Part shown: positions 14,377 to 32,923 of the stretch, one piece after another
Position numbering within the stretch: the stretch's first letter is position 1
Layout: each line of letters begins with the position of its first letter
Assembly (NCBI GenBank): GCA_963666435.2
Contig: CAXXOG010000008.1
Span: 51,286 to 91,285 of the forward strand
Source: Prolixibacteraceae bacterium
GTDB lineage: Bacteria > Bacteroidota > Bacteroidia > Bacteroidales > Prolixibacteraceae
Length of the DNA: 40,000 nt
Reading direction: 5' to 3'
The notes under the pieces: model-generated
The model's input: only the letters and a program-made list of their open reading frames with translations
Databases searched by the model: none
Told to the model about the DNA's origin: nothing
Made by a program: the position numbers and the translations under genes

Positions 14377-14490
14377 CAATCGACAAACATGTCGATCAAA
14401 ACATCTTGCAGGTGTGGTGAATGTGTTGCATCAAGACTGTCGGAATGTCGTGCGTCTGCACTTCTCGATTAGCAATCCTAATTCATTTCG

Positions 14491-15057
14491 TCAGCAGCAG
14501 TTAAAATACATTACTACTTTTTTTGCTTTCTTTGAATAGGCAATTGTCCTTCCATCTTCTTCTCCAATTAAATAAAAGAATCCAATGGCAGTCCGGTCTG
14601 ATTGAATATCATTCCATATTTCCTTGTCCGAATAGTTCTCATCAAAAACCTCGTCCCGTTTTATTGCTGGATACTTAAAATTCTTCTCTTCGAAGAATTC
14701 TCTGATTCGATTTTTCATATATTTTTCTCTGTCCTTGACAGATTCTAAGTCACCTTCGAATCCATAATTCATTAATAGATCGGAAGGAAATTCCTCTCTC
14801 AAAATTGTTGTCTTGTCGTAACTAACGATTGTAAAAATAACTTTCCCCTCTGCGATTGATTTACCTCGAATACAAATGTAAAATTCATCCTTCTTGTTAA
14901 CGTTCGAGAAGTTATGCACCGCTCGTTGTTCAATCAATAGTGAATCAATAATTGTAGCAGATTGCAACTCATTTTTTACACCTAAAGTTTGACCTGTCGA
15001 ACTTTTTATGCTTGCTGTCAGAAAAAAAATAATTAACATCCAGTGTTCTGTCCTCAT
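14491..15057 (-). CDS. hypothetical secreted protein (last cassette of the array)
   Basis: 188-aa ORF with an N-terminal hydrophobic signal-like segment. It is AT-rich and has the same orientation as all other island ORFs. Confidence 0.6.
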   Translation of the reverse strand: MRTEHWMLIIFFLTASIKSSTGQTLGVKNELQSATIIDSLLIEQRAVHNFSNVNKKDEFYICIRGKSIAEGKVIFTIVSYDKTTILREEFPSDLLMNYGFEGDLESVKDREKYMKNRIREFFEEKNFKYPAIKRDEVFDENYSDKEIWNDIQSDRTAIGFFYLIGEEDGRTIAYSKKAKKVVMYFNCC

Positions 15058-15263
15058 GGTTACTATATTTTATTATGATTTATTTCTGCAAAACGCTCGG
15101 TTTCATACTTCTGCCATAAGTTACCACAGTCAATACTTGATTGTCCGCCTTCATTTGTCGTCTTTTTGTCGAGTTTGAGTCCAATCAATTTGACCCCCGG
15201 AATAGTTGTCCTATCCATATTTGCTATTTATTTGTCTGCCTATTTCTGCCCATACAATGCCAC

Positions 15264-15485
15264 AACGGCTACCTCAAGCCCCCAAAACCTTACGTTCGCC
15301 TTTCTCACCCATACGGCTCCGTCACCTTTAAGGCTCACCCGGCAAAGGGTAAATAAAATTCAATAAATCGCTCTACAAATACATACATCCAATCCCGGCG
15401 GGTGCGGTGTATCGAGCTTGCCGGGGTGTAGTTCAACACACACTCATCGCTGGGTCGTGCCGACCGCTCAGAGTCCTATTTATTA
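15264..15485 (-). repeat. junction repeat B1: B-family site module (15485->15350) plus decayed group II intron 3' fragment (15349->15264)
   Basis: Alignable by eye to 16194-16416. The site module begins 14 nt after the HepT stop. The domain V/VI region is mutated here. Confidence 0.75.
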
Positions 15486-15499
15486 TAACCAGTTGTTAT

Positions 15500-15832
15500 T
15501 TAAGCAAGTAGATTATCAATCTCTAATTTCAAGGTAGGCAGATGTCTTACAATCGTTCCCCAGATAATTTCATTGTCAATTTTGTCATAACCATGGATCA
15601 CTCGATTTCGCATACTGATAATTTGTCGTTTACTCGATATCTCAATAGTTGAATCCAATTTCTCAATCCGACTCATTGCTTCTCCTATAATTTCAAACTC
15701 TCGTTCGACCGCTCTTCTCAGCATCTTATCTGCCATATAGACTTTAAAATCACGATTGTCCCCAAGATATTTTAGAATGGAATCTATAGACTCCTGGATG
15801 TCAAACAGATATTTTTTAATCTCATTATCCAT
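15500..15832 (-). CDS. hepT: HepT-like (DUF86/HEPN) toxin
   Basis: Contains the HEPN R-x4-H-x-Y motif as RNRVIHGYD. It overlaps the upstream MNT gene by 8 nt. Confidence 0.85.
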   Translation of the reverse strand: MDNEIKKYLFDIQESIDSILKYLGDNRDFKVYMADKMLRRAVEREFEIIGEAMSRIEKLDSTIEISSKRQIISMRNRVIHGYDKIDNEIIWGTIVRHLPTLKLEIDNLLA

Positions 15833-16127
15833 ATAGCAAGGTTTTTGTTTGGTTAACGGAATTAATAAAATATGGATTAGACAAAGATTTGTCCGTAACT
15901 AAGTCAACGGGTCGTTGAAACAGATCCTCAAATTTATCAGCTAAATCAAAATATGTGTCCGCATAATCTCCGTAGTCCATAGGTTTAAAGGAGATTAGTA
16001 AATCAATATCACTTTTGTCGTTAAATCTGTCGGTGCAGACCGAGCCAAAAACAAATAACGACGCTACATTATGTGTCATGCATAATGATCTGATTCTTTC
16101 AATATTATCGGTTATTAGTCTTTGCAT
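15825..16127 (-). CDS. mntA: MNT-type nucleotidyltransferase antitoxin
   Basis: Contains the minimal nucleotidyltransferase motif FVFGSVCTDRFNDKSDIDLLISF (GS...DxD). Confidence 0.85.
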   Translation of the reverse strand: MQRLITDNIERIRSLCMTHNVASLFVFGSVCTDRFNDKSDIDLLISFKPMDYGDYADTYFDLADKFEDLFQRPVDLVTDKSLSNPYFINSVNQTKTLLYG

Positions 16128-16193
16128 ATCAATGTTTTGTACAAATCTATCATTAATGTTGAAATCTTACAAGTGCCGCAATACAATTGGTGC

Positions 16194-16416
16194 ACCGGGT
16201 AGCTTACGCCCCCTAAGAACCGTACGTGCGACTTTCACCGCATACGGCTCAGGCCCTTTTAAGGCTCACCCGGCGGAGGGTAAATAAAATTCAATAAATC
16301 GCTCTACAAATACATACATCCAATCCCGGCGGGTGCGGTGTATCGAGCTTGCCGGGATGTAGTTCAACTCACACTCATCGCTGGGTCGTGCCAACCGCTC
16401 AGAGTCCTATTTATTA
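16194..16416 (-). repeat. junction repeat B2: B-family site module (16416->16281) plus 87-nt group II intron 3' fragment (16280->16194)
   Basis: The fragment carries an intact domain V (GAGCCGTATGCGGTGAAAGTCGCACGTACGGTTC) and domain VI, identical to the 3' end of the full-length introns. Confidence 0.85.
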
Positions 16417-16448
16417 GGTGTTGTAGTACTTTTATCTCGAAAACAATT

Positions 16449-17633
16449 CTATATCAATTTGTTAATAGCATCTAGAATTTCTTTATCAGTAGTCTCTTTA
16501 TCATAGCCTACTATTATCTTTTTAATCACTCGATTCTTATCTATAATATAAAATGCAGGAACTCCGTTGACCAGATAACTTTTGGAAACCTCTTGTGTTG
16601 ATAATAAAAACTTGTAATTCAATTCATTATTCTTCTGATACCTTTTCATACCTTCAATATTATCGCTCCAGGTTTCTATACTTACAAAATCAAAATCCTT
16701 ATTACTATACTTTGTTACAAGCTTCTTTAAAAATGGAATTGACATATGACAGGGACCACAACCAATTCCGCTGAATTGTACCATAAGTACCTTGCTTCTC
16801 AAATCTTTTAAATTGATTATGTTGTTATTTAAATCTTTAAGTGCCCAATCTGGTGCAATATGCCCGGTTAAATCAACCCTTTCTATTTTTTGCTTTCCCC
16901 GCACTGAAACCGGAAAGTCCTTTGGAAAATACTCTTGTACAATGAAATTCTCAATTTTCTTCTTGTTTAATTCAGCATTCTTACATGTCTCCCAGCTTGT
17001 ACTATGGGGCAGGTTTCTTCTGTACCGATAAGGCAGGTTATTTGATTTTTTTATCCATATATCATATCTGGAAAATTCATCTTTGGCGGGTAAATCCGGA
17101 TTGTCACAAACAACAGGTTTTCCTAGAAATTCGACAACCTTGTGAGGAATGAATAACCTAAATTTAACAGAGTCCCCAAAATCTTTTATTTCAGTTGAAA
17201 TACTATCTTGAGTATTTAATGCATATTTAATTATATTCTTTGTAGTAGTAAAAAATGGAGTGAATCGTCTTTGAGGAGAGCTGTCAATACTTATTCTTTT
17301 TTCGTCCCACAGAAGATATGTAAACGCTTTCCCGTCATAAAACCAACTTGTCTTATGTGTTCGGTCCTGTTGTGTCACAGTAAAACTGGAACCGGCCAAT
17401 GTGTCGACAGAATTAAAATATTCGTCATTATACCGGGAATAAGTTTTAAACTGTAGGGTATCTCCAGGTGCACTTCCGGAAACAGTAGAATAATATGTTG
17501 CAGATTTAATCTGTTCAAGGTTGTTTAAAACCTTTTGTAGATATTTAGTATTGCTATATTCTGTTCGGCATTTGTAAAATAATACTAACGCGATACCTGT
17601 TAGGAATAATAAGAGTAAATACGACCTTTTCAT
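16449..17633 (-). CDS. TlpA-like thioredoxin-fold protein with N-terminal anchor and uncharacterised N-domain
   Basis: The C-terminal domain has the CxxC motif FSGIGCGPCHMSIPFLKKL. Length is 394 aa. Confidence 0.75.
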   Translation of the reverse strand: MKRSYLLLLFLTGIALVLFYKCRTEYSNTKYLQKVLNNLEQIKSATYYSTVSGSAPGDTLQFKTYSRYNDEYFNSVDTLAGSSFTVTQQDRTHKTSWFYDGKAFTYLLWDEKRISIDSSPQRRFTPFFTTTKNIIKYALNTQDSISTEIKDFGDSVKFRLFIPHKVVEFLGKPVVCDNPDLPAKDEFSRYDIWIKKSNNLPYRYRRNLPHSTSWETCKNAELNKKKIENFIVQEYFPKDFPVSVRGKQKIERVDLTGHIAPDWALKDLNNNIINLKDLRSKVLMVQFSGIGCGPCHMSIPFLKKLVTKYSNKDFDFVSIETWSDNIEGMKRYQKNNELNYKFLLSTQEVSKSYLVNGVPAFYIIDKNRVIKKIIVGYDKETTDKEILDAINKLI

Positions 17634-17703
17634 TTTAGAGGTTTTTAGTTTGTGGAGACTATGATTAATTAGCTGTGCAAATATTTATCGGAACTATAAC
17701 ACC

Positions 17704-17970
17704 ACCGGGTAGCTTACGCCCCCTAAGAACCGTACGTGCGACTTTCACCGCACACGGCTCAGGCACTTTTAAGGCTTGCCCGGCTGTTGTTACTTCAAAA
17801 ACTCAAAATCGGTCGCTAACTGCACACTTCGACAAGCTCTGTAACTACTTCGACAAGCTCTGTAACCTTAGCCCCGAATCCGGCGGGTGCGGTGTATCGA
17901 GCTTGCCGAGGTGTAGTTCAACACACACTCATCGCTGGGTCGTGCCGACCGCTCAGAGTCCTATTTATTA
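17704..17970 (-). repeat. junction repeat B3: B-family site module (17970->17796, with 2 x 21-bp internal tandem repeat) plus 92-nt intron 3' fragment (17795->17704)
   Basis: The fragment matches the full-length intron from the last codons of the RT ORF (GTAACAACAGCCGGG) through domains V-VI. The tandem units acttcgacaagctctgtaac lie at 17826-17867. Confidence 0.85.
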
Positions 17971-17984
17971 GCGCCTGTTGTCTA

Positions 17985-18554
17985 TTATGTCTCAATGGTA
18001 AAACGTTTATATTTAGAAACTATTCTTGTCGTTGTCCAACCGCTAATTGTATATAATTTTCTGATTGAAGTTACTTTTATGATCTCATTCCCTTCCAATG
18101 AAATTGATTCAATTCCTAATAACTTGTTTGTTGAATTCTGATAAAAACCTGATAACAGATTAATTGATTTGTAATTCTCATCAAATTGACACATAGCTGC
18201 GTTGGCATAGTTGGCATAGTTAATCGTATAACTCGGATGATAGCTGGTCGAATCAAATATTTCACCTTTGGGTACACTGATATATTCAACTGGCCATTTC
18301 TCCTCAAATAAATTTTTACTGGCTTCAATAACCCGAAGTTCCAATCCCGCGCCTAATATCTCTTTATTTTCACGAAGAAGATTGGTCGAAGGAATACCAT
18401 CCATATTCAAATCTACCGGTTCGGAAGAAATTGAAGAAATCATTTCATATTTACCATGAAATTTTGCCTTTAATAGTTCAATACTCTCGCTTGAATCATT
18501 CTTATTACAACTAAATAGAATAATAGAAATAAAAATTAATAGACTTTGTTTCAT
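17985..18554 (-). CDS. hypothetical lipoprotein
   Basis: MKQSLLIFISIILFSCNKN is a lipobox-type signal. The ORF is open to 18587, but ATG 18554 fits the signal peptide. Confidence 0.65.
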   Translation of the reverse strand: MKQSLLIFISIILFSCNKNDSSESIELLKAKFHGKYEMISSISSEPVDLNMDGIPSTNLLRENKEILGAGLELRVIEASKNLFEEKWPVEYISVPKGEIFDSTSYHPSYTINYANYANAAMCQFDENYKSINLLSGFYQNSTNKLLGIESISLEGNEIIKVTSIRKLYTISGWTTTRIVSKYKRFTIET

Positions 18555-18654
18555 AAACTTCAGTTTCTGTTTTGTGATATAGGACAAAAAATAGTCTTAA
18601 ATATGTCATTTTATAGTATTTGTCTCTTTGTTATTAGCACAATAAATTACCCAC

Positions 18655-18676
18655 AACGTAGGAAGCTACACGCAGG
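18655..18676 (-). repeat. A-family site A1, arm separated from the rest by IS insertion
   Basis: aacgtaggaagctacacgcagg is identical to the equivalent arm of the intact A sites at 25644, 28568 and 31696. Confidence 0.85.
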
Positions 18677-18766
18677 CTGTATGTTTGTAAGTGCGCAATG
18701 CATAAGCCTTCAGTGTTTTTGTAAATTTAGTTTTTGAAAAAGAAACAAAACAAAAAACGAAGACTT

Positions 18767-19843
18767 ATGCTAGCTAAAGGTACGACAATTGATTTTAACG
18801 GGCAAAACGTTTATGCCGGAATTGATATTCATTTAAAGAGTTGGAAGGTAACCATCATGTTGGGAGACCGGGAACATAAAACATTTTCACAAGATCCGAA
18901 TGCAGAAACCCTGTGGAATTACCTGCGGAAGAATTTTCCCGGGGCAGTATATCATTCAGCCTACGAAGCAGGTTTTTGCGGATTCAGCGCCCATCGCGAA
19001 CTTGCGGGTTTTGGGATACACAATCTGGTGGTCAATCCTGCGGATATACCTACCACCGACAAAGAAAAGCGGCAGAAGGAAGACAAACGCGACAGTCGCA
19101 AGATCGCCAAATCGCTCCGTAACGGTGAACTGGTGGGCATCTATGTTCCGGGCAAGGGGATGGAAGAACTGCGTGGTCTGGTTCGTTACCGCAAAACGCT
19201 GGTAAAAGAAATCAGCCGCCATAAGTGCAGGATCAAGTCGTTCATTTATTTTAACGGCATACAAATTCCAATGGAACTGGGCGGCACCTCAACGCATTGG
19301 TCCGGGAGGTTCACCCGGTGGTTAAGCGCAGTTGAATTATCAACGGTACATGGCAAAATGGTACTTGACGACACAGTCGATACGGCAGAACTGCTGCGAA
19401 AAAAACTGTTAAAGGTCAACCGGCATTTGCGTCAGGTTGTCCAGAATGGGGAATATTCACAGCAACTAAGGTTATTGCAGAGCATCCCGGGAATCGGCCT
19501 GATATCGGCCATTACACTTTTGACCGAAATGGAGGATATCCTTCGGTTCAGGAACCTTGACCAACTTTGTTCATTCGTGGGACTGGTACCATCAACCAAC
19601 TCCTCGGGCGAAAAGGAGAATGTTGGTCGTATCACCAGGCGCAACAACCGTTTTCTACGCAGCATTCTTGTAGAGGCAGCCTGGATGGCATCGAGAAAAG
19701 ACCCGTCGCTGTTATATAGCTATGCCTTACTTTGCAAGCGGATGGAACCAACGGAAGCCATCATCCGGATAGCAAAAAAATTACTAAACAGGATAAGATA
19801 TGTAATGAAAAATGAAACAGAATATGTACATTCAGTGCTATAA
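18767..19843 (+). CDS. IS110-family transposase (DEDD N-domain plus Transposase_20-type C-domain)
   Basis: N-terminal VYAGIDIHLKSW and C-terminal LQSIPGIGLISAITLLTEM...FVGLVPSTNSSGEK..GRITRRNNRFLRSILVEAAW are typical of the family. The ORF is open from TTG 18734, but the ATG at 18767 is the likelier start. Confidence 0.9.
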   Translation: MLAKGTTIDFNGQNVYAGIDIHLKSWKVTIMLGDREHKTFSQDPNAETLWNYLRKNFPGAVYHSAYEAGFCGFSAHRELAGFGIHNLVVNPADIPTTDKEKRQKEDKRDSRKIAKSLRNGELVGIYVPGKGMEELRGLVRYRKTLVKEISRHKCRIKSFIYFNGIQIPMELGGTSTHWSGRFTRWLSAVELSTVHGKMVLDDTVDTAELLRKKLLKVNRHLRQVVQNGEYSQQLRLLQSIPGIGLISAITLLTEMEDILRFRNLDQLCSFVGLVPSTNSSGEKENVGRITRRNNRFLRSILVEAAWMASRKDPSLLYSYALLCKRMEPTEAIIRIAKKLLNRIRYVMKNETEYVHSVL

Positions 19844-19899
19844 CATCAAAACTGGTTGTAAAAACTACTCCATGATAAAGAGACTGTTTTCCGCCCCTT

Positions 19900-20140
19900 G
19901 CGGCCCCTGATAGGGTGTCCGTTACACGCAGGCCACAGCTCTTATCTATAATAAATTGAACACAGGAATGCGGCTGGTTGCACCATGTCCGTTGATAGAA
20001 GGGTGTTTTTATAGACCGGTATTTGATACAAAAGAGGGGAACCCGAAGGTGAAGTTTTACACCGAAGGTTTAGAAATTATGCTGGGCTTTTGCCCAGCAT
20101 AATTAAACCAAGAGGGGAAACCCTCAGGCTCTGTATTGCC
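19900..20140 (+). ncRNA. candidate bridge/seek RNA of the IS (3' non-coding region)
   Basis: Four short segments match the insertion chemistry. TACACGCAGG (19923-19932) equals the target left flank plus core. TGCGG (19969-19973) equals the target right flank. ATAGAAGG (19995-20002) equals the IS right end plus core. CTGTAT (20131-20136) equals the IS left end. Two of these follow a repeated GTCCGTT scaffold. The RNA boundaries are not defined. Confidence 0.5.
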
Positions 20141-20233
20141 CAAAGGTTTAGGGATTTAAAAAGTTAACTTACTGAATAGTAGAAAAATAGTTTAAAAATA
20201 AAGAATGAAAAATTTGGATTACAACATAGAAGG

Positions 20234-20356
20234 GGCGGACTGCGGGCGATTTGGCTAACGCCGATTTTCAATTCCTGTCAAGCCGAAATGCAGCCCGGGC
20301 GGAAAGATACACACCGAAAACCAATGCTGCCGACCTTGACGGGTAGCTGATGTTAT
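20234..20356 (-). repeat. A-family site A1, remainder
   Basis: ggcggactgcgggcgatttggctaacgccgattttcaattcctgtcaagccgaaa...gacgggtagctgatgttat is homologous to the intact A sites. Confidence 0.85.
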
Positions 20357-20379
20357 ATGCCGCTCTTATTCTGTCCCAT

Positions 20380-21117
20380 TTAATATTCAAACCTAATGGA
20401 ATAATATTGCAATAAATCTTTATCATTCTGTTGGTCATATTCGTGAGTCGCAATGTATATAGTGTTTTTGTCTGCCCAAAACATTGCTGTTTTTTCATCC
20501 TCATTAATGTCAATGTCCGTAAAATCAAATGCAAAAAGCGTCCAAACGCCATTTTTTGAAGACTTGCATATCTCAATTTGAAGGAAATTGTCGCAATCTT
20601 GTCTCTCCAACCCAACCCAAAGTCCATCTTTGGACATCACACCATATTCGCCTCTAAATCTTCGATAACCTGATGCTACTTTATTTGTGCTGGCAAACAC
20701 AAAACTTGCTTTTGCATTATGATAGTCTAGTATGTAAAACAAATATAAGTTAAGAGTAGGATAATATGCTTTAAAAGAAGTAAGGCATCTCGGTGAATTG
20801 CATAATTCACTTTTTGCAAGTTCTTTTTCATCTTCATTGTAAGTTTTTTCAATAGACTCAAATGGTTTTTCAAGTTTTGTAGTGTCACCAATTTCGGTTA
20901 CAAAAGGTGCATTATAGTTTCTTTTTAATGCGTTTCTAAATTCTAATTTGGTAATAGGCGAAAAGGTAAAAAATCGTCTATTTCCTTCTGACTTTGTGCT
21001 GTCAGCCTTGATTGTCTGTGCATTTGTCGAGTTGTTACAACTTATCAAAAGCAAAGTCGCTATGAGTGTCCTAGCAATTTGAAGTCTTAATGTCGATATG
21101 GTAATTGTCTTGCTCAT
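20380..21117 (-). CDS. hypothetical secreted/lipoprotein
   Basis: 245-aa ORF with the signal LLLISCNNS. The cassette is bracketed by a 13/14 inverted repeat. Confidence 0.65.
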   Translation of the reverse strand: MSKTITISTLRLQIARTLIATLLLISCNNSTNAQTIKADSTKSEGNRRFFTFSPITKLEFRNALKRNYNAPFVTEIGDTTKLEKPFESIEKTYNEDEKELAKSELCNSPRCLTSFKAYYPTLNLYLFYILDYHNAKASFVFASTNKVASGYRRFRGEYGVMSKDGLWVGLERQDCDNFLQIEICKSSKNGVWTLFAFDFTDIDINEDEKTAMFWADKNTIYIATHEYDQQNDKDLLQYYSIRFEY

Positions 21118-21138
21118 AATGTCGTCTTAGAGTGGCAT

Positions 21139-21162
21139 ATAACGTAGGAAGCTACACGCAGG
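21139..21162 (-). repeat. A-family site A2, arm separated by IS insertion
   Basis: ataacgtaggaagctacacgcagg, the same arm as at 18655-18676. Confidence 0.85.
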
Positions 21163-21252
21163 CTGTATGTTTGTAAGTGCGCAATGCATAAGCCTTCAGT
21201 GTTTTTGTAAATTTAGTTTTTGAAAAAGAAACAAAACAAAAAACGAAGACTT

Positions 21253-22329: not shown

Positions 22330-22385
22330 CATCAAAACTGGTTGTAAAAACTACTCCATGATAAAGAGACTGTTTTCCGCCCCTT

Positions 22386-22626: not shown

Positions 22627-22719
22627 CAAAGGTTTAGGGATTTAAAAAGTTAACTTACTGAATAGTAGAAAAATAGTTTAAAAATAAAGAATGAAAAATT
22701 TGGATTACAACATAGAAGG

Positions 22720-23393: not shown

Positions 23394-23407
23394 TTAAGGT
23401 TGCCGCA

Positions 23408-25790: not shown

Positions 25791-25810
25791 GGTGCGTTTT
25801 CCTTTGTCTG

Positions 25811-26359
25811 TCAAGCATCTCCGTTAACCATTAGTTCATAATATTCTCCTTTTGTCAGGTTGATTTTAAGGTTAAAATAGCAATTCCCGCCATCCATAAC
25901 TTCTATTATCTCTTTTTTCCAATCAGTGTCCCAAGTGTTACAAAAGCAATTTACCCAAATTTCCTTTTCTCCTTGTGAATTAATGGCCGCAATATATTGT
26001 CGTTTGTAACGGGACAAATCAATGATAAAATTTTTCTTGTCCAGTTTATAATTTGGGTGCTTGTCATTTATTTCCTTGAATTGTCTCTCTTGGTCTGGGT
26101 TATAATTGTCAATACATTCTTTTAATAATTTCTCAACTTGCGTCAAGTCAGCATTTGTCAGCTCCACCGGTTTGCTGTCTATAAACAACCATTTTTGCGC
26201 CGTGTCAAACGGTAAAACGGCTATGGTAGAAGTGTCAATTTGTAAAGATGTCGAACTTAAAACTCCGTCTTTACTTGCAACTTGATTCTGTCCACAGCAT
26301 GAAAGGTTGACAGTCAAAACCAAAACTAATATTGTCATTTGTCTAATCATTCGTGTCAC
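25811..26359 (-). CDS. hypothetical secreted protein
   Basis: 182-aa ORF with an N-terminal signal-like segment (MTILVLVLTVNLSCCGQ). Confidence 0.65.
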   Translation of the reverse strand: MTRMIRQMTILVLVLTVNLSCCGQNQVASKDGVLSSTSLQIDTSTIAVLPFDTAQKWLFIDSKPVELTNADLTQVEKLLKECIDNYNPDQERQFKEINDKHPNYKLDKKNFIIDLSRYKRQYIAAINSQGEKEIWVNCFCNTWDTDWKKEIIEVMDGGNCYFNLKINLTKGEYYELMVNGDA

Positions 26360-26374
26360 TCTTTTAAATGCGCC

Positions 26375-26640
26375 AACCGGGTAGCTTATGCCCCCTAAAG
26401 AACCTTACATTCAACTTTCACCTCACACGGCTCAGGCACCTTTAAGGCTCACCCGGTTGTTATTACTTCAAAAACCATAAAACGGTCGCTAAGTGCATAC
26501 TTCGACAAGCTCTGTAACTACTTCGACAAGCTCTGTAAACACTTCGACAAGCTCTGTAATCTTAGCCCCGATCCCGGCGGGTGCGGTTCAACCGGGAATA
26601 ATCGCTGGGTCGTGCCGACCGCTCAGAGTCCTATTTATTA
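26375..26640 (-). repeat. junction repeat B4: B-family site module (26640->26469, 3 x 21-bp internal tandem repeat) plus decayed 94-nt intron 3' fragment (26468->26375)
   Basis: Homologous to B3. The tandem units lie at 26499-26561. Domain V carries several substitutions. Confidence 0.8.
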
Positions 26641-26651
26641 GCACCAGTTTT

Positions 26652-27356
26652 CTATGTGTCAGTTGTAATATCGTCCCAATTTTCGTCATAATATGTTACC
26701 CAATTTATTGCGTAATGTCTTTCTTCTACAATACTCTCATCTATTCTAAGTTTCTCTAACTTATCCAAATCAGCTTGTCTTGTCGCCCAATGTAATCTAT
26801 AAGTCAAGTCAGAGATGTCAAGTATTTCCGAAACTGTCCGAAGAGTCGCCTTTTCCACAAATTCATTCGTATCTGCCATGAAATCTGGAACGAGGCTTAA
26901 TAATTTTGATATTTCAACTTGTTCAATTGGCAATTCTAACTTTTCAACTTTGTTAATTGCCCAAAGTAGAATCCAAATGGCTTCTGATCGCCACGAAATA
27001 TTTATCTTGTCTTGGTCCGTAAGTTCGTTTTTGAAAAGTTCAATTTCAGCATTTGAAATACTGTTCCAGAGTCCTTGTTGTTTTAGAAAATCAACTACAT
27101 TTTCCTTGTCATCTGGTTCTTCCGCAATATAATTCAGATAAATTAAAACCAATATTCTCTTTGCTATTTCTTGAGGTGTCCTAATTCTTGCGTCACTTTC
27201 TTCTTCAATTGCAGGCAAATGGTCAATAAACGGAATAGCTAAAGACTTTAAATATTTCTCAGTCTGTGCTTTTCTTTCTTTAGCAGTCTTTTGCTCTGAT
27301 TGCTTGCCTCTTTTATAAATGTCAAATAGTCCCATTCTTAATATTGTTGTGTCCAC
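26652..27356 (-). CDS. hypothetical protein (possibly DUF4272-like; from memory, unverified)
   Basis: 234-aa ORF. The start is GTG 27356 or ATG 27335. The cassette is bracketed by a 13/14 inverted repeat. Confidence 0.6.
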   Translation of the reverse strand: MDTTILRMGLFDIYKRGKQSEQKTAKERKAQTEKYLKSLAIPFIDHLPAIEEESDARIRTPQEIAKRILVLIYLNYIAEEPDDKENVVDFLKQQGLWNSISNAEIELFKNELTDQDKINISWRSEAIWILLWAINKVEKLELPIEQVEISKLLSLVPDFMADTNEFVEKATLRTVSEILDISDLTYRLHWATRQADLDKLEKLRIDESIVEERHYAINWVTYYDENWDDITTDT

Positions 27357-27372
27357 TTAAAATTGGTGCTAA

Positions 27373-27497
27373 CGTTGAGGGTATGCAGCGTGCGGGAGTT
27401 CGTGGCCACTTCCTTATCCACCGTTACTGCCCTTGCCAGCGAGCCCTGAGCTTGCAAATGGCTCTGAAACCCGCATGTTGTATACCCTGTGTTGAAC
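27373..27497 (-). repeat. C-family attC-like site
   Basis: Imperfect inverted arms: (A)ACGTTGAGGGTATGCAGCGTGCGGG ... CCCGCATGTTGTATACCCTGTGTTGAAC. It shares the AACGT..GCAG.GTGCGG layout with family A. Confidence 0.75.
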
Positions 27498-27559
27498 TAA
27501 ATCCGCCTTCGCGGATAGCTTTTTAAAACTACCCGATTCTTCCTATTCTAAGGAATTAA

Positions 27560-27832
27560 TCACAACAAAAATTTCTGAATATGAGAAAGAAATCGGGTTT
27601 TAATATTGTTGAGCAGGCCATTGTGCTTGTTCCTGAGTTTGAAAAAGTTGTCCGCAAGTTGGCGTACATGGGAAAGGTATGCCCAATTGCCAGCGAAAAT
27701 GACTAAAAACAGGTGGCCAAACACGATTTTACCAGTGCTGTGAAACCATAAAAGCACTAAAACCTGCAATACGTCAAAAAACGTTATCTCATTAATTTCC
27801 TTCAAAAACTCAAAATCGGTCGCAAAGTGCAT
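27560..27832 (-). CDS. doubtful small ORF in a ~310-bp cassette (may be ORF-less)
   Basis: 90-aa ORF whose first 8 codons lie inside repeat B5. No motif recognised. Confidence 0.2.
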   Translation of the reverse strand: MHFATDFEFLKEINEITFFDVLQVLVLLWFHSTGKIVFGHLFLVIFAGNWAYLSHVRQLADNFFKLRNKHNGLLNNIKTRFLSHIQKFLL

Positions 27833-27909
27833 AGCTCCGATCCCGGCGGGTGTAGTTCAACACAGACTCATCGCTAGGCGTTGCACGCCACTCAGAGTCC
27901 TATTTATTA
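27809..27909 (-). repeat. junction repeat B5: B-family site module without any intron fragment (uninvaded form)
   Basis: Homologous to the site-module part of B3 and B4. It lacks domains V-VI and carries a compensated hairpin variant at 27877-27889. Confidence 0.8.
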
Positions 27910-27926
27910 GCAACCGTATCTTATTA

Positions 27927-28556
27927 TCATTTCTCAAGTTGTTGTCTGATTAAAGCATAAACTAATCCAAGCGTTAGAACAATAAGAAATATTAGCCAGC
28001 CATAGCCGCTGTATTTATTATTCTTGTTTGCAGTATATGCGTTAGTCGCATTTTTTGTCTTAATATTTCTCCTAACTCTTTGAAGTTCTCCATTGAAAAT
28101 ATAATAATCTGAAATTTCAAACGAGTTATACTTTATTTTTTTACCATTCTTTAATTCTATGATAGTCTTGTCTCCACTATATACATTTATGTTTCGACCA
28201 GCATGTGAGGGATTTATTTTAAAATCTCCTTCTGTTACGCTTTTAATTTCAGTCAATGGTATGGCCTTAGTCAAAAATATTAGAGGCCTTTTTATTAAAA
28301 AACTCTTATCTGTCAGAACAAAAGTTTTGACTGTCAGTAGCATTACCAAACAGGCAGAAGCAAAGAAAACAAATGAGCCAAATGTCACGCACATAATTAT
28401 TAAACCAACTGGCCCATCGGTTCCCTTTTCAATTACCCATATTGTTGGCCGTGTCATATAAGTAAACGCGCCAAAGAAAATAGTCCCGAAGAGTCCGAAT
28501 CCGATAGTTTTCACACTCAAAGAAGTTGTCAAAATATTTGTCTCTGTTGTCTCCAT
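27927..28556 (-). CDS. hypothetical membrane protein (2 N-terminal TM, soluble middle domain, C-terminal TM)
   Basis: ATG 28556 (METTETN...) is the first start outside repeat A4. The track ORF extends to 28628 only by reading through the repeat. Confidence 0.6.
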   Translation of the reverse strand: METTETNILTTSLSVKTIGFGLFGTIFFGAFTYMTRPTIWVIEKGTDGPVGLIIMCVTFGSFVFFASACLVMLLTVKTFVLTDKSFLIKRPLIFLTKAIPLTEIKSVTEGDFKINPSHAGRNINVYSGDKTIIELKNGKKIKYNSFEISDYYIFNGELQRVRRNIKTKNATNAYTANKNNKYSGYGWLIFLIVLTLGLVYALIRQQLEK

Positions 28557-28567
28557 AATATGGTTGC

Positions 28568-28713
28568 TAACGTAGGAAGCTACACGCAGGTGCGGTTTGC
28601 GGGCGATTTGGCTAACGCCGATTTTCAATTCCTGTCAAGCTGATAAACAGCCCGAGCGGAAAGATGCACCCCGAAAACCACCAAACCCGCACTTGACGGG
28701 TAGCTGATGTTAC
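28568..28713 (-). repeat. A-family attC-like site A4 (intact)
   Basis: Same architecture as A3, with a few substitutions. It starts ~12 nt after the stop of the TIR-like ORF. Confidence 0.85.
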
Positions 28714-28725
28714 CTGCATGTGCCT

Positions 28726-29385
28726 TTATTCTGTCATTTGTTTTAGGTCATCCAAATCTTTTCTCATTTGGTCTAAGTTATTCTTATTAATCAGTGGACC
28801 AAACTGGGTTGCAATTATTTCAAGTTCAACTTTTCTCGAACGAGCAATTAGTTCAATTAATTTCTTAAAACGGTCATTTGTTAATTCAAATTCGTCTGTT
28901 GCGCTTCCTAATTTTTTAAGATGATTAGTCACTCTAATTCCTAATCTTTGAATTTCGTTTTGAATTAATGTTGTCGGAGCACCTAATGATGCTAAAAGAT
29001 TACCGTCTGAATGCTCTTGAAAAGAGGCAAATGTTATTCCTGCTAGATCAGTAGGGATTTTGATTTGCTTTGAACGGTCAAAGACAATGAATGTTCTGTC
29101 TCGACCGATGCCGCCAACAAAAAGACCAAGCTCAAACAGTACATTGTCTCGAGGTGATTGTGTCGTTTGCTCTTTTGAGGTTGTCATGTCGTCAGGCGTT
29201 AGAGCAAGTATTGCGAAATCATACTTATCCAAAGCAAGAACTAACGATTCTAATGTCCCTTGGCTGAGACCAAATACTCCTTGACTCCAGATTGTCACTT
29301 CGCAACTGTTGTCAAGTAGCACTTGGATTGATTGAGCAACTTTTAGTCCTTCAGTGGAAGAACCAATAAAAATCTTAGGTCTCAT
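28726..29385 (-). CDS. TIR-like nucleotide-binding domain protein (pfam10137 / Cap12-type N-domain) with helical C-terminal domain
   Basis: MRPKIFIGSSTEGLKVA..I...L.....V..WSQGVF......L......YDFAILALTPDD..........PRDNVLFELGLFVGGIGRDR matches the pattern recalled for the TIR-like family. Confidence 0.7.
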   Translation of the reverse strand: MRPKIFIGSSTEGLKVAQSIQVLLDNSCEVTIWSQGVFGLSQGTLESLVLALDKYDFAILALTPDDMTTSKEQTTQSPRDNVLFELGLFVGGIGRDRTFIVFDRSKQIKIPTDLAGITFASFQEHSDGNLLASLGAPTTLIQNEIQRLGIRVTNHLKKLGSATDEFELTNDRFKKLIELIARSRKVELEIIATQFGPLINKNNLDQMRKDLDDLKQMTE

Positions 29386-29459
29386 TTATTCTGCACTTTT
29401 TGTATTATTTATGTGTCAATTTGTAAAACTCACTGTCTGCTGTCCTCTGGCATTGCAGG

Positions 29460-31695
29460 ACCGGGTAGCTTACGCCCCCTAAGAACCGTACGTGCGACTT
29501 TCACCGCATACGGCTCAGGCACTTTTAAGGCTCACCCGGCGGAGGGCAACCCGGCTGTTGTTACTTTTTTATTGGACATAAACATAGTAATTTGTTTGCA
29601 TTCTTTTGCTAAATTAGCTCTCCATTTTGTTCTGTTACTGAAGTATTCATCAAATTCGGGCAGAAAAGGATTGGCTTCGGCCTTCAGTTTTACATGATAC
29701 CGAATGGGAACATATCCAATACGGTACAGTCGATGATTCTCTGTTCCGTTTTTGGTGATCCGCTGATCAGTAAAATGGTTGTCGTGAAAGTAACGATGGT
29801 ATATCCACCAGCGATTTTTGTTTCCATGCTGGTATTTAGCCCATCGCCTGAGCTGCCACCAGATGAATGTTGCCAAACGGATGAAAATACGTTTTGAGCA
29901 GATGCCTTTGTGGTAGTTCGACCATCCCCTGATTACAGGGTTCAGTATCCGTATCAGAGCATGTGCGGGTATTCCACGGTTTTCGTTGATGATCGTTTTC
30001 ACCTTGTCTCTAAACGATTGGACTGATTCTTTCGATGGACGAATAACCAGTTTGCCTTTAAATTTACGGACATTCTGTGAAAGGAAGTTAAACCCATCGC
30101 TGATATGCGTGATTCTGGATTTTTCGGCAGAGAGTTCTAACCCTCTTTCCATCAGGAAGTCGTTTACCAAAGGGATAATCTCTTCGGTAATGACTTCTTT
30201 GCTGATGGCCGTGATCACAAAATCGTCGGCATAACGGATGAAGTTCACTTTCTTGTTTTTCCATCGGGGAAACTTTTTATTGATGGCCGTTTCCAGTCCG
30301 TCCAAAACCATGTTCATGATTACCGGTGATATGGTTCCTCCCTGTGGCGTACCTTTATCTGTGCGGAACAAACGTTTTTTCTCGATGTAACCGGCTTTTA
30401 ACCATTGATTAAGAATGGTCTTGTTGACGGGAATATTTTCCAATATCCAGTCGTGCCGGATGTTATCGAAACAAGATTTGATGTCCGCCTCGAATATCCA
30501 TTGGGACGAGATTTTTCGGCAGAGCAATTGGAAACAGGCGGCAATGGCATCGTTGCACGAACGACGAGGTCTGAACCCGTAAGAGTTCTTGTCGGCCAAC
30601 GATTCGGCCATTGGTTCGAGGGCTATCTTATGCAATGTTTGCATAGCCCTGTCGCTCATGACCGGAATACTTAACGGACGCTTTTTCCCGTTTTTCTTTG
30701 GGATGTAAAGTCGGCGCAATGGTTTCGATCTGTACCCTCTGGATTGGAGTTTTCGGGCTGCTTCGAGTTTTTCTTCCCCGTTTGTCCAAACGGTGTTGTC
30801 AACCCCGGGAGTTGCGCCTCCTTTGTTGGTTGAGACCCTTAGTACAGCCAGTAATTTAGCGTAGAATGATTTGGTAACAAGGTGCATCAGGGCTTTTGCT
30901 TTCGCCCAACGACCTTGTTTTACAGCCTTGGCAATGCGGCGTTGCAGCCTGGTCACATGTTGGATAACCTTCCGCCATAAAATGGTTTGCCAGTTATTCA
31001 ATTGGTGTGGGAGCGCACACGATAAACTTTCATCCTCGTTCATTTGCTTTCTTCCATTTGCAGGTTCTGTAAAACTTTATGCCATAAAGCACCAGATGAA
31101 GGTAGGCAGGCTTTCGCCCGTGGTGATGTTGTAAACAAACTCAACCACTATCCAACCCGTTACAGGAAGGCATTCGCTTTGTTCATCGTCTCTGTCCGGC
31201 GTTTCCCGATGCCTCGCGGTTACGGTTTTATCCCGAAAATAATGGGAGAGAGCGCCGGGCTTACACGTTCCGAATAAATAATCAATTGTGTGGGTTTAGG
31301 CCCATCCTGTCTGCCGGCTGATCTACATCCTTGTAGGCACTGCGTTAAACGTACCTAACCTGTCAGCTCACCATTTTGGTACAAAGCGTATCATTCTCTT
31401 TTTCGCTCCTACTCGCCTGTCGGCAGTAACGGATTGTTCACTATATGTTAGCCATGCCCACTGATCCAAGCCCTTAATTGACTTTGAGACTTCAAAGACT
31501 GTCTGCCTCACGGTTTCCAGCCCCGCCATTGGCTGCACGAGCCCGGCAATTGGTACTGTTTCCCGGGGGCTTCACCCGGTAATGGCTGCACCATACACCA
31601 GGTGCCCCGGTAGGATACTGCTGAAGGAACAGCAGGTTTTGTCAATCAGTTGTAACTGACTGCAAAACAATTGCTTAATACGACTTCGTGTCGCA
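29460..31695 (-). mobile_element. group II intron, full length, copy 2 (identical to copy 1)
   Basis: Offset of +6052 from copy 1. Identity extends through the adjoining A site (29460-31838 equals 23408-25786). Confidence 0.9.
29532..31043 (-). CDS. group II intron reverse transcriptase/maturase (copy 2)
   Basis: Its 503-aa translation is identical to that of 23480-24991. Confidence 0.95.
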   Translation of the reverse strand: MNEDESLSCALPHQLNNWQTILWRKVIQHVTRLQRRIAKAVKQGRWAKAKALMHLVTKSFYAKLLAVLRVSTNKGGATPGVDNTVWTNGEEKLEAARKLQSRGYRSKPLRRLYIPKKNGKKRPLSIPVMSDRAMQTLHKIALEPMAESLADKNSYGFRPRRSCNDAIAACFQLLCRKISSQWIFEADIKSCFDNIRHDWILENIPVNKTILNQWLKAGYIEKKRLFRTDKGTPQGGTISPVIMNMVLDGLETAINKKFPRWKNKKVNFIRYADDFVITAISKEVITEEIIPLVNDFLMERGLELSAEKSRITHISDGFNFLSQNVRKFKGKLVIRPSKESVQSFRDKVKTIINENRGIPAHALIRILNPVIRGWSNYHKGICSKRIFIRLATFIWWQLRRWAKYQHGNKNRWWIYHRYFHDNHFTDQRITKNGTENHRLYRIGYVPIRYHVKLKAEANPFLPEFDEYFSNRTKWRANLAKECKQITMFMSNKKVTTAGLPSAG

Positions 31696-31842
31696 ATAAC
31701 GTAGGAAGCTACACGCAGGTGCGGATTGCGGGCGATTTGGCTAACGCCGATTTTCAATTCCTGTCAAGCCGAAAAGCCGACCGAGCGGAAAGATGCACAC
31801 CGAAAACCACCGAACCCGCACTTGACGGGTAGCTGAAGTTAT
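31696..31842 (-). repeat. A-family attC-like site A5 (intact)
   Basis: Identical to A3 up to the outer core. It starts ~15 nt after the stop of the 31858-32139 ORF. Confidence 0.85.
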
Positions 31843-31857
31843 AGGGCGTTTTTCGTT

Positions 31858-32139
31858 TCATCTGTTTGATAATGATTTCTCTAAAGTTGTCGATAAAAAT
31901 TCGGCAATTTGTATTTGTTCGACAGACATTAGCTGTCTGTTTGAATTAATTGCTTTCTCCATAGCAAACTTAAATTCATACCAGCCATCTGTTAGTCCGT
32001 TTATAAACTTCTTTGCGTCCATAAAATCTAAAACGATTCTGTCTTTGTTTTCCGCGTTCAAAAGGTCGATTAACTTGTCAAAAATCAACCAATAGTCCGA
32101 CCAACCATTGATTTTAAACTTTTCCATTTGCTTCATCAT
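31858..32139 (-). CDS. hypothetical small protein (second gene of a two-gene cassette)
   Basis: 93-aa ORF that overlaps the stop of the upstream DUF4279-like ORF. Confidence 0.55.
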   Translation of the reverse strand: MMKQMEKFKINGWSDYWLIFDKLIDLLNAENKDRIVLDFMDAKKFINGLTDGWYEFKFAMEKAINSNRQLMSVEQIQIAEFLSTTLEKSLSNR

Positions 32140-32557
32140 TAGCAGAATTGAATCTGTAAATATCTATATCTGTCGTTGTTCCTGTCCGATACAGAAATTC
32201 TATTGTTCTCAAGTCGTGTCCTAACGCTGGTGTCGAATTATCTTCGTTAGTGTCAATGTACAAAACAATTTCTAATACCGAGTTCAATTGAAATTGGCTT
32301 TTTAAATCATTGATAATCTCAATTTTGTCGCACAACTTAGACACAATTTCATCCACTAAATTGTCAATTTGTATGTACTCTTTACCTTTGTCTGTGGATA
32401 ATCTCCACATTGCAAACTCAACGGCAGTTTTATAAAATCCTTTATCTCCTTTTCGCCATGAATCTGTCGGTGTTATACCAAGTCTATTTGTCACCTCGTC
32501 TGTGTCAAAACTGTCTCCTTTAAGAGCAAAATAAACATATGAACTACCTGTCTCCAT
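32114..32557 (-). CDS. DUF4279-like protein (family from memory)
   Basis: 147 aa. The N-terminus YVYFALKGDSFDTDEVTNRLGITPTDSWRKGDKG resembles the DUF4279 pattern. Confidence 0.6.
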   Translation of the reverse strand: METGSSYVYFALKGDSFDTDEVTNRLGITPTDSWRKGDKGFYKTAVEFAMWRLSTDKGKEYIQIDNLVDEIVSKLCDKIEIINDLKSQFQLNSVLEIVLYIDTNEDNSTPALGHDLRTIEFLYRTGTTTDIDIYRFNSANDEANGKV

Positions 32558-32577
32558 TAGCGATTTTTAAATGCCCT

Positions 32578-32631
32578 ATAACTAGTAAATAGCGGCAAGT
32601 TTATAGTACTTTTTCTCTTGCCGTTTGTTAC
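32578..32631 (-). repeat. D-family compact attC-like hairpin (54 bp) upstream of the first cassette
   Basis: ATAAC-TAGTAAATAG-CGGCAAG ...loop... CTTGCCG-TTT-GTTAC. It has the same TAAC/GTTA core and asymmetric bulges. Confidence 0.6.
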
Positions 32632-32923
32632 GATAAAAAACAATTGCGCCGGCAATTTCAGAGATCGAGCCCTTATGTCGCCCCGGAATCCGGGTGCGAA
32701 TTTCGCTGGTTTTACACAGCTATGTGAACAGTGTCATGCCCCACAAAGGCAGGTTCAGGATGCCGCTCGTTGTTTTGCTAAAAATAAGGCGTTATGTTCA
32801 AATATCAAAACTATTGTTCACTTATTTTCAATCTTTATTTGCATTAAATTGCTCAGTGCCAAACTATCCGGAATCCAGCTTAACGATTGCTCCGAAAATG
32901 TCGGTATCGCATTGCACAACCCG

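Follow-up and report, generated by a model that had tools for sequence, protein, structure and literature searches.

The stretch analyzed here (the window; 40,000 nucleotides (nt) of DNA from a Prolixibacteraceae bacterium, at its full length) holds, at positions 14380-32820, a block of ~18 kb with the anatomy of a cassette array. Between a PRTase gene (13978-14376) and a CarboxypepD_reg gene (32959-33999), the bounds already placed by an initial annotation made from the sequence alone, 11-12 co-oriented single-gene cassettes are laid out with GC-rich imperfect palindromes in between. The best explanation, to which a probability of roughly 0.8 was assigned, is that the block represents the cassette array of an integron-like platform for gene capture, one that is typical of Prolixibacteraceae and whose recombinase gene has decayed at this locus. 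The evidence consists of the anatomy of the array, a signature at the cassette boundaries, the association of related arrays with a recombinase, and the turnover of cassettes between close relatives.

Related loci were collected by scanning for exact matches to the 19-base core of the family-A site, a repeat of ~147 nt present in five copies in the window. With one genome per species, at least 116 blocks of 8 kb were returned, and the comparative set comprised 125 loci from genomes other than that of the window (designated below by L numbers). The blocks listed come nearly all from metagenome-assembled genomes (MAGs) and isolates of Prolixibacteraceae/Bacteroidales, including Draconibacterium, Mariniphaga, Sunxiuqinia, and Maribellus. 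The loci were searched with IntI1, in a sequence confirmed to be 100% identical to plasmid intI1 genes, and a gene for a tyrosine recombinase of ~578 amino acids (aa) was found immediately 5' of the arrays, and co-oriented with them, in L006, L041, L042, and L111. Homologue look-ups gave three more array-heading copies, in the Aquipluma nitroreducens isolate AP018694.1, in CAXXQR, and on a third contig (L117, L118, and L123). In CAXXQR, the recombinase gene lies at 3.990 Mb and blocks with A sites continue to 3.904 Mb, so that the array spans at least 86 kb.

The C-terminal 290 aa of the recombinase are 36% identical to IntI1 across the full IntI1 length (E 1e-55), the catalytic residues were invariant in 44 homologues, and the best solved relative, by profile and by fold alike, was VchIntIA (2a3v). 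The best NCBIfam model was that of the integron integrase (TIGR02249), matched in two stretches with 237.6 bits, below the cutoff of 265. The IntI-specific additional domain (around patch III) is lacking: exactly at its place, the alignment with IntI1 has gaps of 27 aa and 10 aa. The N-terminal extension, of ~290 aa, is predicted to consist of three beta-beta-alpha-beta-beta-alpha repeats. No relative of the extension could be identified: profile searches of the PDB and Foldseek searches matched the catalytic half only, Pfam returned only a weak DUF5710 match, and a single-sequence AlphaFold model reached a pLDDT (predicted local distance difference test score) of 36. The family drew 476 matches, the best 120 of which are mostly 577-583 aa long (up to 643) and at least 69% identical; no Bacteroides-named protein is among these best 120 homologues listed. 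In L042, a small GIY-YIG-like open reading frame (ORF) at 1540-1930 interrupts the recombinase gene near its 3' end, and the last ~38 codons resume after it. Just upstream of the recombinase in L006, a separate ORF (3516-3947) codes for a protein paralogous to the N-terminal repeat domain, with 31-63% identity over aa 42-188.

One array is headed by a different enzyme. In L089 (4537-7615), a short recombinase of 285 aa, without the N-terminal extension and 33% identical to the 578-aa enzyme, is accompanied by an attI-like CTATAAACTAG|TTA, one A-type site, and a mini site of ~55 nt, and both cassettes follow the start/end complementarity described below. This case indicates that platforms of this kind are used by more than one lineage of recombinases. 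Among the homologues of the short L089 enzyme, none had a Bacteroides name, and the search led instead to a conserved context of SBF_like, Fic, 144-aa, and recombinase genes in L119-L122 (recombinase gene at 8001-8852 in each), where the recombinase has 283 aa and is 72% identical to that of L089. The cargo there differs from contig to contig and includes MmeI-type restriction-modification and ABC transporter genes, and in L121 the SBF-Fic pair is duplicated and flanks the cargo on both sides. This context may be another cargo-capturing system.

An attI-like site follows the stop codon of the recombinase in nine loci (L006, L041, L042, L111, L117, L118, L123, L124, and L125). Its pattern is AAAAAGTAC(C/T)ATA(T/A)A(T/C)TT...TA(T/C)TAG|TTA, and in its strict form this pattern was found nowhere else in the 125 loci. 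A repeat with CGGCAAG/CTTGCCG boxes at 32573-32617 in the window, previously listed as site family D, proved to be homologous to this attI-like site; it heads the window array, and cassette 1 begins at its G|TT. Immediately upstream of it, positions 32636-32777 showed 72-77% identity by blastn to the recombinase genes of L006, L041, L042, and L111, and tblastn resolved this remnant into two adjacent pieces in different frames, NNERHPEPAFVGHDTVHIA and SEIRTRIPGRHKGSISEIAGAIVF (E 2e-5 to 9e-5). The attI-like site and the remnant at the head of the window array indicate that the array once had a recombinase and then lost it, and the earlier statement that the 40 kb contain no attI and no integrase fragment is therefore withdrawn. 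A comparable remnant, C-terminal in this case, stands beside an attI-like site in L072.

Cassette turnover was evident from closely related loci. L006 and L123 share 96% identity over 5.9 kb, a span that takes in flank, the recombinase gene, and the attI-like site; the homology ends at ...ACTAGTTATG, and beyond this point only the A sites themselves are in common. L124 and L125 have the same recombinase and carry a third sequence after the attI-like site. The first insert differs, then, among loci with recombinases that are 99-100% identical, and close relatives differ by whole cassettes from the attI junction on.

A second line of evidence came from the cassette boundaries. Over its first ~14 nt, each cassette reads as the reverse complement of the sequence flanking its own downstream site. 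The nine variable nt after the GTT of one site were compared with the reverse complement of the nine nt before the AAC of the next site, and over 164 consecutive pairs a mean of 6.29 of the nine positions matched, against 3.48 for shuffled partners (the maximum of 200 shuffles being 3.76) and 3.39 for the left flank of the same site. The match reaches position 14, with positions 12-14, which were not used for selection, agreeing in 79-89% of pairs; at position 11 a systematic A/G difference was seen in 70% of pairs. Such complementarity between start and end is as expected for a former circle with an outer stem of 10-14 bp, opened at G|TT, and homology between genomes breaks at G|TT. The linking rule delimited 141 cassettes, with a median length of 680 nt, and in 116 of them the longest ORF is on the sense strand. 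This ORF takes up 80% of the cassette and is preceded by ~50 nt and followed by 23 nt. The cargo is diverse: 118 cassette proteins matched 111 Pfam families, none of which occurred in more than three proteins, examples being Gp49/HigB, Fic, Schlafen-AlbA2, Abi_2, TPR proteins, and hydrolases.

The features of the window array, from the head onward, are as follows.

32573-32617, minus strand: attI-like site (earlier family D), GAGAAAAAGTACTATAAACTTGCCGCTATTTACTAG|TTATAGGGC, with the probable crossover between 32582 and 32581.
32636-32777, minus strand: recombinase-gene remnant, frameshifted, covering aa ~74-120 of the N-terminal extension of the 578-aa tyrosine recombinase.
31700-32581, minus strand: cassette 1, with a DUF4279 protein gene (32114-32557; Pfam) and a 93-aa ORF (31858-32139); site A5 at 31700-31847.
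29460-31696, minus strand: group II intron copy 1, with a reverse transcriptase (RT)/maturase ORF at 29532-31043 (Rfam RF02012 and RF00029; Pfam RVT_N, RVT_1, and GIIM).
28571-29459, with the first 3 nt at 31697-31699 upstream of the intron, minus strand: cassette 2, with a gene for a CAP12/Pycsar-type TIR protein (28726-29385; PF10137, E 3e-31); site A4 at 28571-28718.
27373-28570, minus strand: cassette 3, with a membrane-protein ORF (27927-28556), the left core GGTTGCTAA at 27907-27917, an IS91-family remnant at 27492-27906, and the site body, family C, at 27373-27491.
26376-27372, minus strand: cassette 5, with a DUF4272 protein gene (26652-27356; PF14094, E 5e-54), the left core at 26638-26648, and the B4 composite, which includes 21-nt tandem repeats, at 26376-26637, where the body of the cassette's site has been deleted.
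25648-26375, minus strand: cassette 6, with a gene for a putative lipoprotein of 182 aa (25811-26359); site A3 at 25648-25795.
23408-25644, minus strand: group II intron copy 2, with an RT ORF at 23480-24991, inserted after the GTTA| of A3.
21143-23407, minus strand: cassette 7, with a 191-aa ORF (22818-23393); site A2 in two parts, 22717-22826 and 21143-21162.
21163-22716, transposase gene (21220-22329) on the plus strand: IS110-family copy 2, splitting A2.
18657-21142, minus strand: cassette 8, with a 245-aa ORF (20380-21117); site A1 in two parts, 20231-20361 and 18657-18676.
18677-20230, transposase gene (18734-19843) on the plus strand: IS110-family copy 1, splitting A1.
17704-18656, minus strand: cassette 9, with a 200-aa ORF (17985-18587), a core at 17968-17978, and B3, a composite of IS91 end and intron remnant, at 17704-17967.
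16194-17703, minus strand: cassette 10, with a gene for a 394-aa redoxin/thioredoxin-fold protein (16449-17633; Pfam Redoxin), a core at 16414-16424, and the B2 composite at 16194-16413.
15264-16193, minus strand: cassette 11, with an MNT nucleotidyltransferase gene (15825-16127) and a HepT RNase gene (15500-15832), a toxin-antitoxin pair (PF01934, PF18765, and PF01909), a core at 15483-15493, and the B1 composite at 15264-15482.
14380-15263, minus strand: cassette 12, the last, with a 188-aa ORF (14491-15057); it abuts the 3' end of the PRTase gene.

The credible ORFs outside the mobile elements number 13, one fewer than first counted, and every one lies on the minus strand, as had been stated. 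Their products are mutually unrelated, several of them without a Pfam match. The cassette ORFs have a GC content of 34.1% (range 31-37%), compared with 42-43% in the flanks and 55% in the A sites, in keeping with the AT-richness reported for them. The five A copies lose their conservation at CCTACG|TT, and the stop codon at 22818-22820 (cassette 7) falls within a TAAC core; both points had been made in the initial annotation. Family D, counted there among the repeats that follow an ORF, does not follow one, and cassette 12 has no recognizable terminal site. An Rfam scan of the window returned matches to group II introns only, Rfam itself being without an attC family. As called mechanically, from a TTG at 28628, the ORF at 27927-28628 extends into site A4; the likely start of this cassette 3 ORF is the ATG at 28556, 14 nt past the crossover, as in its L017 homologue.

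The boundary signature was found in cassettes 1, 2, 3, 5, 8, and 10 of the window, in 2, 5, and 10 after removal of inserted elements. For cassette 1, which starts with GTTATAGGGCATTT, the A5 left flank gives GTTATAGGGCGTTT when reverse-complemented. With intron copy 1 removed, the flanks rejoin as GTTA|CCTGCAATG, which agrees with the A4 left flank (cassette 2). Cassette 3 starts with TTAGCAACC, the exact reverse complement of GGTTGCTAA. For cassette 5, the start GTTAGCACCAATTTT agrees with the reverse complement of the core, ATTAGCACCAGTTTT; cassette 8 begins with GTTATATGCC, which corresponds in reverse complement to the A1 left flank GGCATATAAC; and for cassette 10, GGTGTTATAG agrees with the reverse complement of the core, TTAGGTGTTGTAG.

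The A sites were then considered across the whole set. A profile made from the window copies located 295 A sites in the window and the 116 or more blocks. Sources with at least two sites account for 240 of the 295, and mixed strands within one locus were never seen. The blocks cluster on the chromosome, at 424-496 kb in OW818695.1 and at 4176-4320 kb in CAXXIM contig_1, and this clustering, together with the co-orientation, removes the reading of the A repeats as dispersed repetitive extragenic palindromic (REP) elements. In an alignment of 144 A sites, the site body (~125 nt) was about 90% conserved across genera, with variable flanks. Conservation per base is 97-98% for AAC among 280 left cores and 97-100% for GTT among 251 right cores, and the observed core consensus, NNNYAAC / GTTRNNN, fits 93-94% of sites. 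Further site families in related arrays were found by the linking rule, and the only part common to them is nnnnnnTAAC. A-type sites were also present in MAGs labelled as other phyla (L082, L009, L095, L005, L035, L048, L070, and L098), the labels being Victivallales (a complete chromosome), Ignavibacteriaceae, Chlorobiaceae, Solibacteraceae, Limnohabitans, Sphingomonas, and an archaeon; the MAG labelled Chlorobiaceae also carries a C-terminal recombinase fragment, 59% identical. The short contigs among these may be mis-binned, but the Victivallales chromosome is harder to dismiss.

For the fold, 102 'circular' A sites were rebuilt by joining the first 16 bases of each cassette to its own site. 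In the consensus fold, AAC/GTT closes an R stem, which is followed by an asymmetric internal loop, a bulged L stem (AGCTAC/GTAGCT), an inner GC stem, and a variable tip. The energy of this fold is -17.4 kcal/mol on the bottom strand and -11.1 on the top strand, and G.T pairs number 132 on the bottom strand against three on the top, one G.T pair being invariant. The variable R-stem positions show up to four Watson-Crick pair types each, in a set that was chosen for R-stem complementarity, and one inner pair alternates between G-C and C-G. The fold energies and G.T pairs suggest that the bottom strand is most likely the folded single-stranded substrate, as in integrons. Single-copy folds of A and B sites as single-stranded DNA barely beat shuffles (z -0.2 to -2.1), so support for the structure was taken from the comparative data.

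The favoured interpretation of these data is as follows. In an intact version, the gene for the 578-aa recombinase lies directly upstream of the array, in the same orientation, and is followed by the conserved attI-like site. The cassette unit is a compact, apparently promoterless gene or gene pair plus an imperfect-palindromic site of ~125-150 nt, of family A or one of several others. Such a unit would circularize, and its site would fold as single-stranded DNA, most likely from the bottom strand, with a cassette-specific R stem of 10-14 bp closed by AAC/GTT. The recombinase would then exchange strands at G|TT with attI or another site; the catalytic role, the single-stranded route, and the choice of strand are all read from comparison of sequences. 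In the genome of the window, the recombinase gene has been deleted down to a remnant of 140 nt, leaving attI and 11-12 cassettes, and what remains would be a fossil comparable to a CALIN (cluster of attC sites lacking integron-integrases), unless a recombinase copy elsewhere in the genome acts in trans. Three kinds of site-specific parasite have colonized the sites: an IS110-family element in the stem (CCGCMCCT|), group II introns in sense orientation after GTTA|, and an IS91-family element, inverted, in the left core TAA|C.

The closest published counterpart is rAID-1 (recombinase-associated acquired interbacterial defense), described by Ross et al. 2019 as a 5' XerD-like recombinase with co-oriented low-GC genes and intergenic repeats 'reminiscent of integrons' (10.1101/471110). 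That the block is itself a member of this family of gut Bacteroidales is possible but doubtful. The architecture fits, with a 5' co-oriented tyrosine recombinase, co-oriented short low-GC genes, repetitive intergenic motifs, and a likeness to integrons drawn in the published description itself; the definition asks for at least two co-oriented downstream genes of GC at most 41% (10.1101/471110), and the window has 13 co-oriented ORFs of 31-37% GC, 34% on average. The host order is the same, since GTDB places Prolixibacteraceae within Bacteroidales, and L089 supplies a short recombinase of 285 aa at the head of the same kind of array. However, rAID-1 is defined by a recombinase at least 44% identical to B. 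fragilis BF9343_RS08045 (10.1101/471110), and the 33% identity between the 578-aa and the L089 enzymes means that several recombinase lineages are involved. The cargo also appears to differ, being orphan immunity genes in rAID-1 and very diverse here, probably not dominated by immunity (DUF4272, DUF4279, and several ORFs without a Pfam match in the window). The arrays here reach at least 86 kb, compared with about 16 kb there, and start/end complementarity and attI, found here, are not described in 10.1101/471110 or PMC12247911. By analogy of architecture, the platform is probably kin to the rAID-1 arrays of Bacteroidales, the biogenesis of which was still called unknown in 2025 (PMC12247911).

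The likeness to integrons covers several features. Compact, co-oriented, promoterless cassettes each end in an imperfect-palindromic site with AAC...GTT cores; the first bases of a cassette pair with the left core of its own site, with a probable crossover at G|TT; and an attI-like site stands beside the recombinase gene, whose closest characterized relatives are IntI1 and VchIntIA. The cargo is highly diverse and includes toxin-antitoxin pairs and defence-type genes, the arrays run to tens of kb, and the sites are parasitized by IS110-family elements and group II introns. The differences are an R stem of 10-14 bp that is cassette-specific, compared with the 7-bp RYYYAAC/GTTRRRY consensus, a site body ~90% conserved across genera, a recombinase with ~37 aa of gaps relative to IntI1 in place of the IntI-specific domain and with an N-terminal extension of ~290 aa, and a recombinase gene that is co-oriented with the cassettes. 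A co-oriented integrase gene is also found in the 'inverted' integrons of Treponema and Chlorobium. The host differs as well, for these arrays belong to Bacteroidota, where surveys found almost no integrons: IntegronFinder 2.0 recorded for Bacteroidetes only In0 elements and one complete integron, in Salinibacter (PMC9024848), and a 2024 preprint cites Bacteroidota as a clade 'previously found without any integrons' (10.1101/2024.07.02.601686). The standard detection tool requires the IntI-specific domain (PMC9024848, 10.1101/2024.07.02.601686), an insertion that in the classification of tyrosine recombinases by Smyshlyaev et al. lacks full conservation within the integron-like subgroup. A literature search on integrons in Prolixibacteraceae or Marinilabiliales gave nothing relevant. 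In its workings the system resembles an integron, and IntI is the nearest relative of its recombinase, yet the system departs from integrons on two defining points, the IntI-specific domain and the 7-bp core consensus.

The block could also be an ordinary integron remnant, that is, a CALIN with canonical attC sites served by a standard IntI elsewhere in the genome, with the neighbouring 578-aa recombinase being incidental. The conserved AAC...GTT cores (97-98% of sites), a fold with R and L boxes and bulged bases that favours the bottom strand, and the targeting of the sites by IS110-family elements and group II introns, as known for attC (PMC7923331), are all compatible with this. It is nevertheless unlikely. 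The 578-aa recombinase and attI head the arrays in seven of the seven loci with intact context, and a remnant of the gene heads that of the window; a protein with the IntI-specific domain was seen in none of the 125 loci; and the strict core consensus occurs in only 3-6% of sites. The sparse survey record for Bacteroidetes just cited points the same way. The proposal of an integron-like array with non-canonical attC-like sites and a G|TT crossover, colonized by insertion sequences and introns that target the sites and served by a distant or unknown recombinase, is borne out, and the 578-aa enzyme is found consistently at array heads.

A fuller proposition, given about even odds, is that the window shows the decayed head and the array of an undescribed Bacteroidota integron lineage. 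This lineage would be marked by a 578-aa IntI-related recombinase without the IntI-specific domain and with a three-repeat N-terminal extension, a conserved attI, sites of ~125 nt with cassette-specific outer stems of 10-14 bp, arrays of at least 86 kb, and site-specific parasites of its own, among them an IS91-family element that carries a recombinase and would behave like a selfish cassette; it would also supply the missing mechanism for rAID-1 arrays.

The IS91-family element was recognized from a unit of ~2.4 kb, present in at least seven copies in arrays of CAXXIM and other genomes, on the strand opposite to the cassettes. Its genes are those for a tyrosine recombinase of 301 aa, with 35% identity to the 578-aa enzyme, and, after it, a 391-aa transposase with Y2_Tnp and Zn_Tnp_IS91 domains (PF04986, E 4e-51, and PF14319, E 9e-28, in the intact copy of L114), and the transposase places it in the IS91 family. 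An accessory recombinase in this arrangement is listed by ISfinder for some members of that family. The element here differs from IS91 at large in lying always at a site core, the left core in arrays and possibly the attI crossover in L124 and L125. Seven copies have common ends, which align to B1-B5 of the window and to the sequence before family C. Family B is accordingly not a family of cassette sites, as first annotated, but the ~95-nt terminus at the far end of this element, joined to the preceding cassette at nnnnnnTAA|. The near end, ...GGCGGATTTAGTTCAA, is joined to the C(A/T)TCAGCTACCC of an A site, and from these junctions the element, inverted, is inserted within the left core TAA|C. 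The ends TTGAACTACACCCGCC and GGCGGATTTAGTTCAA are complementary in the manner of cassette start and end. In L124 (2672-2727) and L125 (2672-2719), where the recombinase is identical to the L123 enzyme, the sequence after the attI-like site is TTGAACTAAACCGC, which resembles the recombinase-proximal end of the element; the contigs stop ~25 nt later. This sequence suggests that the IS91-family element can enter at the attI crossover like a cassette.

The window holds only remnants of this element. Positions 27492-27906 are an internally deleted copy, composed of B5 with ~240 nt of the left end and the right end, and the 90-aa 'ORF' at 27560-27832 lies inside it. Family C (27373-27491), first described as an attC-like site in its own right, is indeed the body of cassette 3's own site, but it is split from its left core (27907-27917) by the IS91 remnant. 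In B1-B4, the IS91 end is fused to group II intron remnants by their final ~125 nt (domains V-VI), as recognized by Rfam RF00029 for B2 (16194-16252) and B3 and by alignment for B4 and the degenerate B1. These composites abut the next cassette at the position of intron insertion, from which it follows that cassettes 5, 9, 10, and 11 have lost their site bodies. A tandem repeat of 21 nt (ACTTCGACAAGCTCTGTAA plus 2 nt), in 2-3 copies, occurs within two of the composites (17826-17870 and 26499-26566) and was present neither in the other two nor in intact IS91 copies. Two other assignments were discarded. Family B had been considered a variant cassette site (TAAT for TAAC), with the element carrying the small recombinase as an inverted cassette, until the Y2/IS91 transposase was found; and the sequence after the B sites, considered as an intron 5' end, is IS91 sequence by alignment to intact copies. 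In the intact IS91 copies, Rfam detected no intron domains.

The other two types of mobile element noted by the initial annotation in or next to the repeats are both present. Two identical IS110-family elements split A1 and A2 at CCGCMCCT|GCGTG, and copies of the same family occupy the same A-site position, in one orientation, in L004, L005, L024, and L043. Such a fixed position and orientation inside the site stem is shared with the IS1111-attC subgroup of IS110, the known parallel to these elements. Two full group II introns lie directly after A3 and A5 and are identical over the 300 nt compared at the 3' end; both match Rfam RF02012 and RF00029 and encode an RT with RVT_N, RVT_1, and GIIM domains. 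They have the ends 5'-UUGCG...GU-3', and their insertion point is after GTTA|, at a distance of 3 nt from the crossover, in sense orientation. Insertion immediately after the site hairpin is shared with the attC-associated introns, of which the classical IIC-attC type is antisense to the cassettes and enters the bottom strand at TTGT|T (PMC7923331); in contrast, the two full introns and the four remnants here are all in sense orientation. They resemble UHB.I2, a IIB1/CL1 intron reported downstream of attC (PMC7923331).

It could be that the array was assembled by these resident elements, through one-ended rolling-circle transposition of the IS91 type or intron-mediated joining of gene and site, with no dedicated recombinase. 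The recombinase-bearing IS91-family element is multicopy in the arrays and always at a site core, four window cassettes end in composites of IS91 end and intron remnant, and for integrons a formation of cassettes through introns has been suggested (Leon and Roy 2009, as cited in PMC7923331). Most cassettes in related arrays, however, carry neither element, many loci without them have the same structure, and the elements interrupt sites that are otherwise intact, while the composites, lacking a site body, look like damage and not genesis; this origin is considered very unlikely. Least tenable of all, to the point of being negligible, is an ordinary variable island with generic intergenic elements (REP-like, miniature inverted-repeat transposable element-like, or terminators) and no cassette mobility: the sites are GC-rich hairpins just after stop codons, with single-copy folds little more stable than shuffles, but the cassette-specific complementarity, the strict co-orientation and clustering, the breaks of homology at G|TT, and the association with recombinase and attI all stand against it. 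The doubts raised at the outset, that the repeats might be dispersed like REP elements, that relatives might show no variation in cassettes, or that no recombinase might be associated with such arrays, are thus answered by repeats that are clustered and co-oriented, by relatives that differ in whole cassettes, and by a recombinase at the array heads.

Several points weigh against the integron-like platform, support for which is wholly comparative. The domain that contacts extrahelical bases in integron integrases is lacking, so the integron mechanism cannot simply be assumed. Strict RYYYAAC was found in 16 of 280 left cores (6%) and strict GTTRRRY in eight of 251 right cores (3%). Across genera, the sequence conservation of the A site goes far beyond what is usual for attC, so that the site may have a further role, and its genome-wide distribution is sampled here by at least 116 matched blocks. 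A different recombinase heads the L089 array, so that the pairing of recombinase and site is not exclusive. The ORF at 27927-28556 is 86% identical to an ORF in L017 (a Draconibacterium MAG), with homology beginning right after the upstream site, but downstream of it the window has family C, split by IS91, where L017 has an A-type site, a difference not simply explained by a classical unit of ORF plus own site. The ORF of cassette 9 is 87.5% identical to one in L071, and the start and end flanks of this cassette mismatch each other. The same ORF with different sites and the mismatch in cassette 9 indicate that sites can be swapped or lost.

Outside the array, the neighbouring genes are of a housekeeping kind: on the PRTase side they encode MutL, rhomboids, BrkB, RlmH, a histidine kinase, an aldo-keto reductase, and an MBL hydrolase, and on the CarboxypepD_reg side AIM24 and an RRM protein.

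Integrons serve as the model for gene capture in bacteria, and the present data suggest that gene capture of the integron type exists on a large scale in a phylum thought to be almost free of integrons. If confirmed, the platform would widen both the definition and the host range of integrons, and it would reveal what a recombinase can do without in the recognition of folded sites. It would also offer a testable mechanism (attI, crossover at G|TT, and circular cassettes) for the building of rAID-type arrays in gut Bacteroidales. The long cassette-specific stems, and the occurrence of the same ORF with different downstream sites, bear on how cassettes are born, and a cultured host, Aquipluma nitroreducens, makes experiments feasible.

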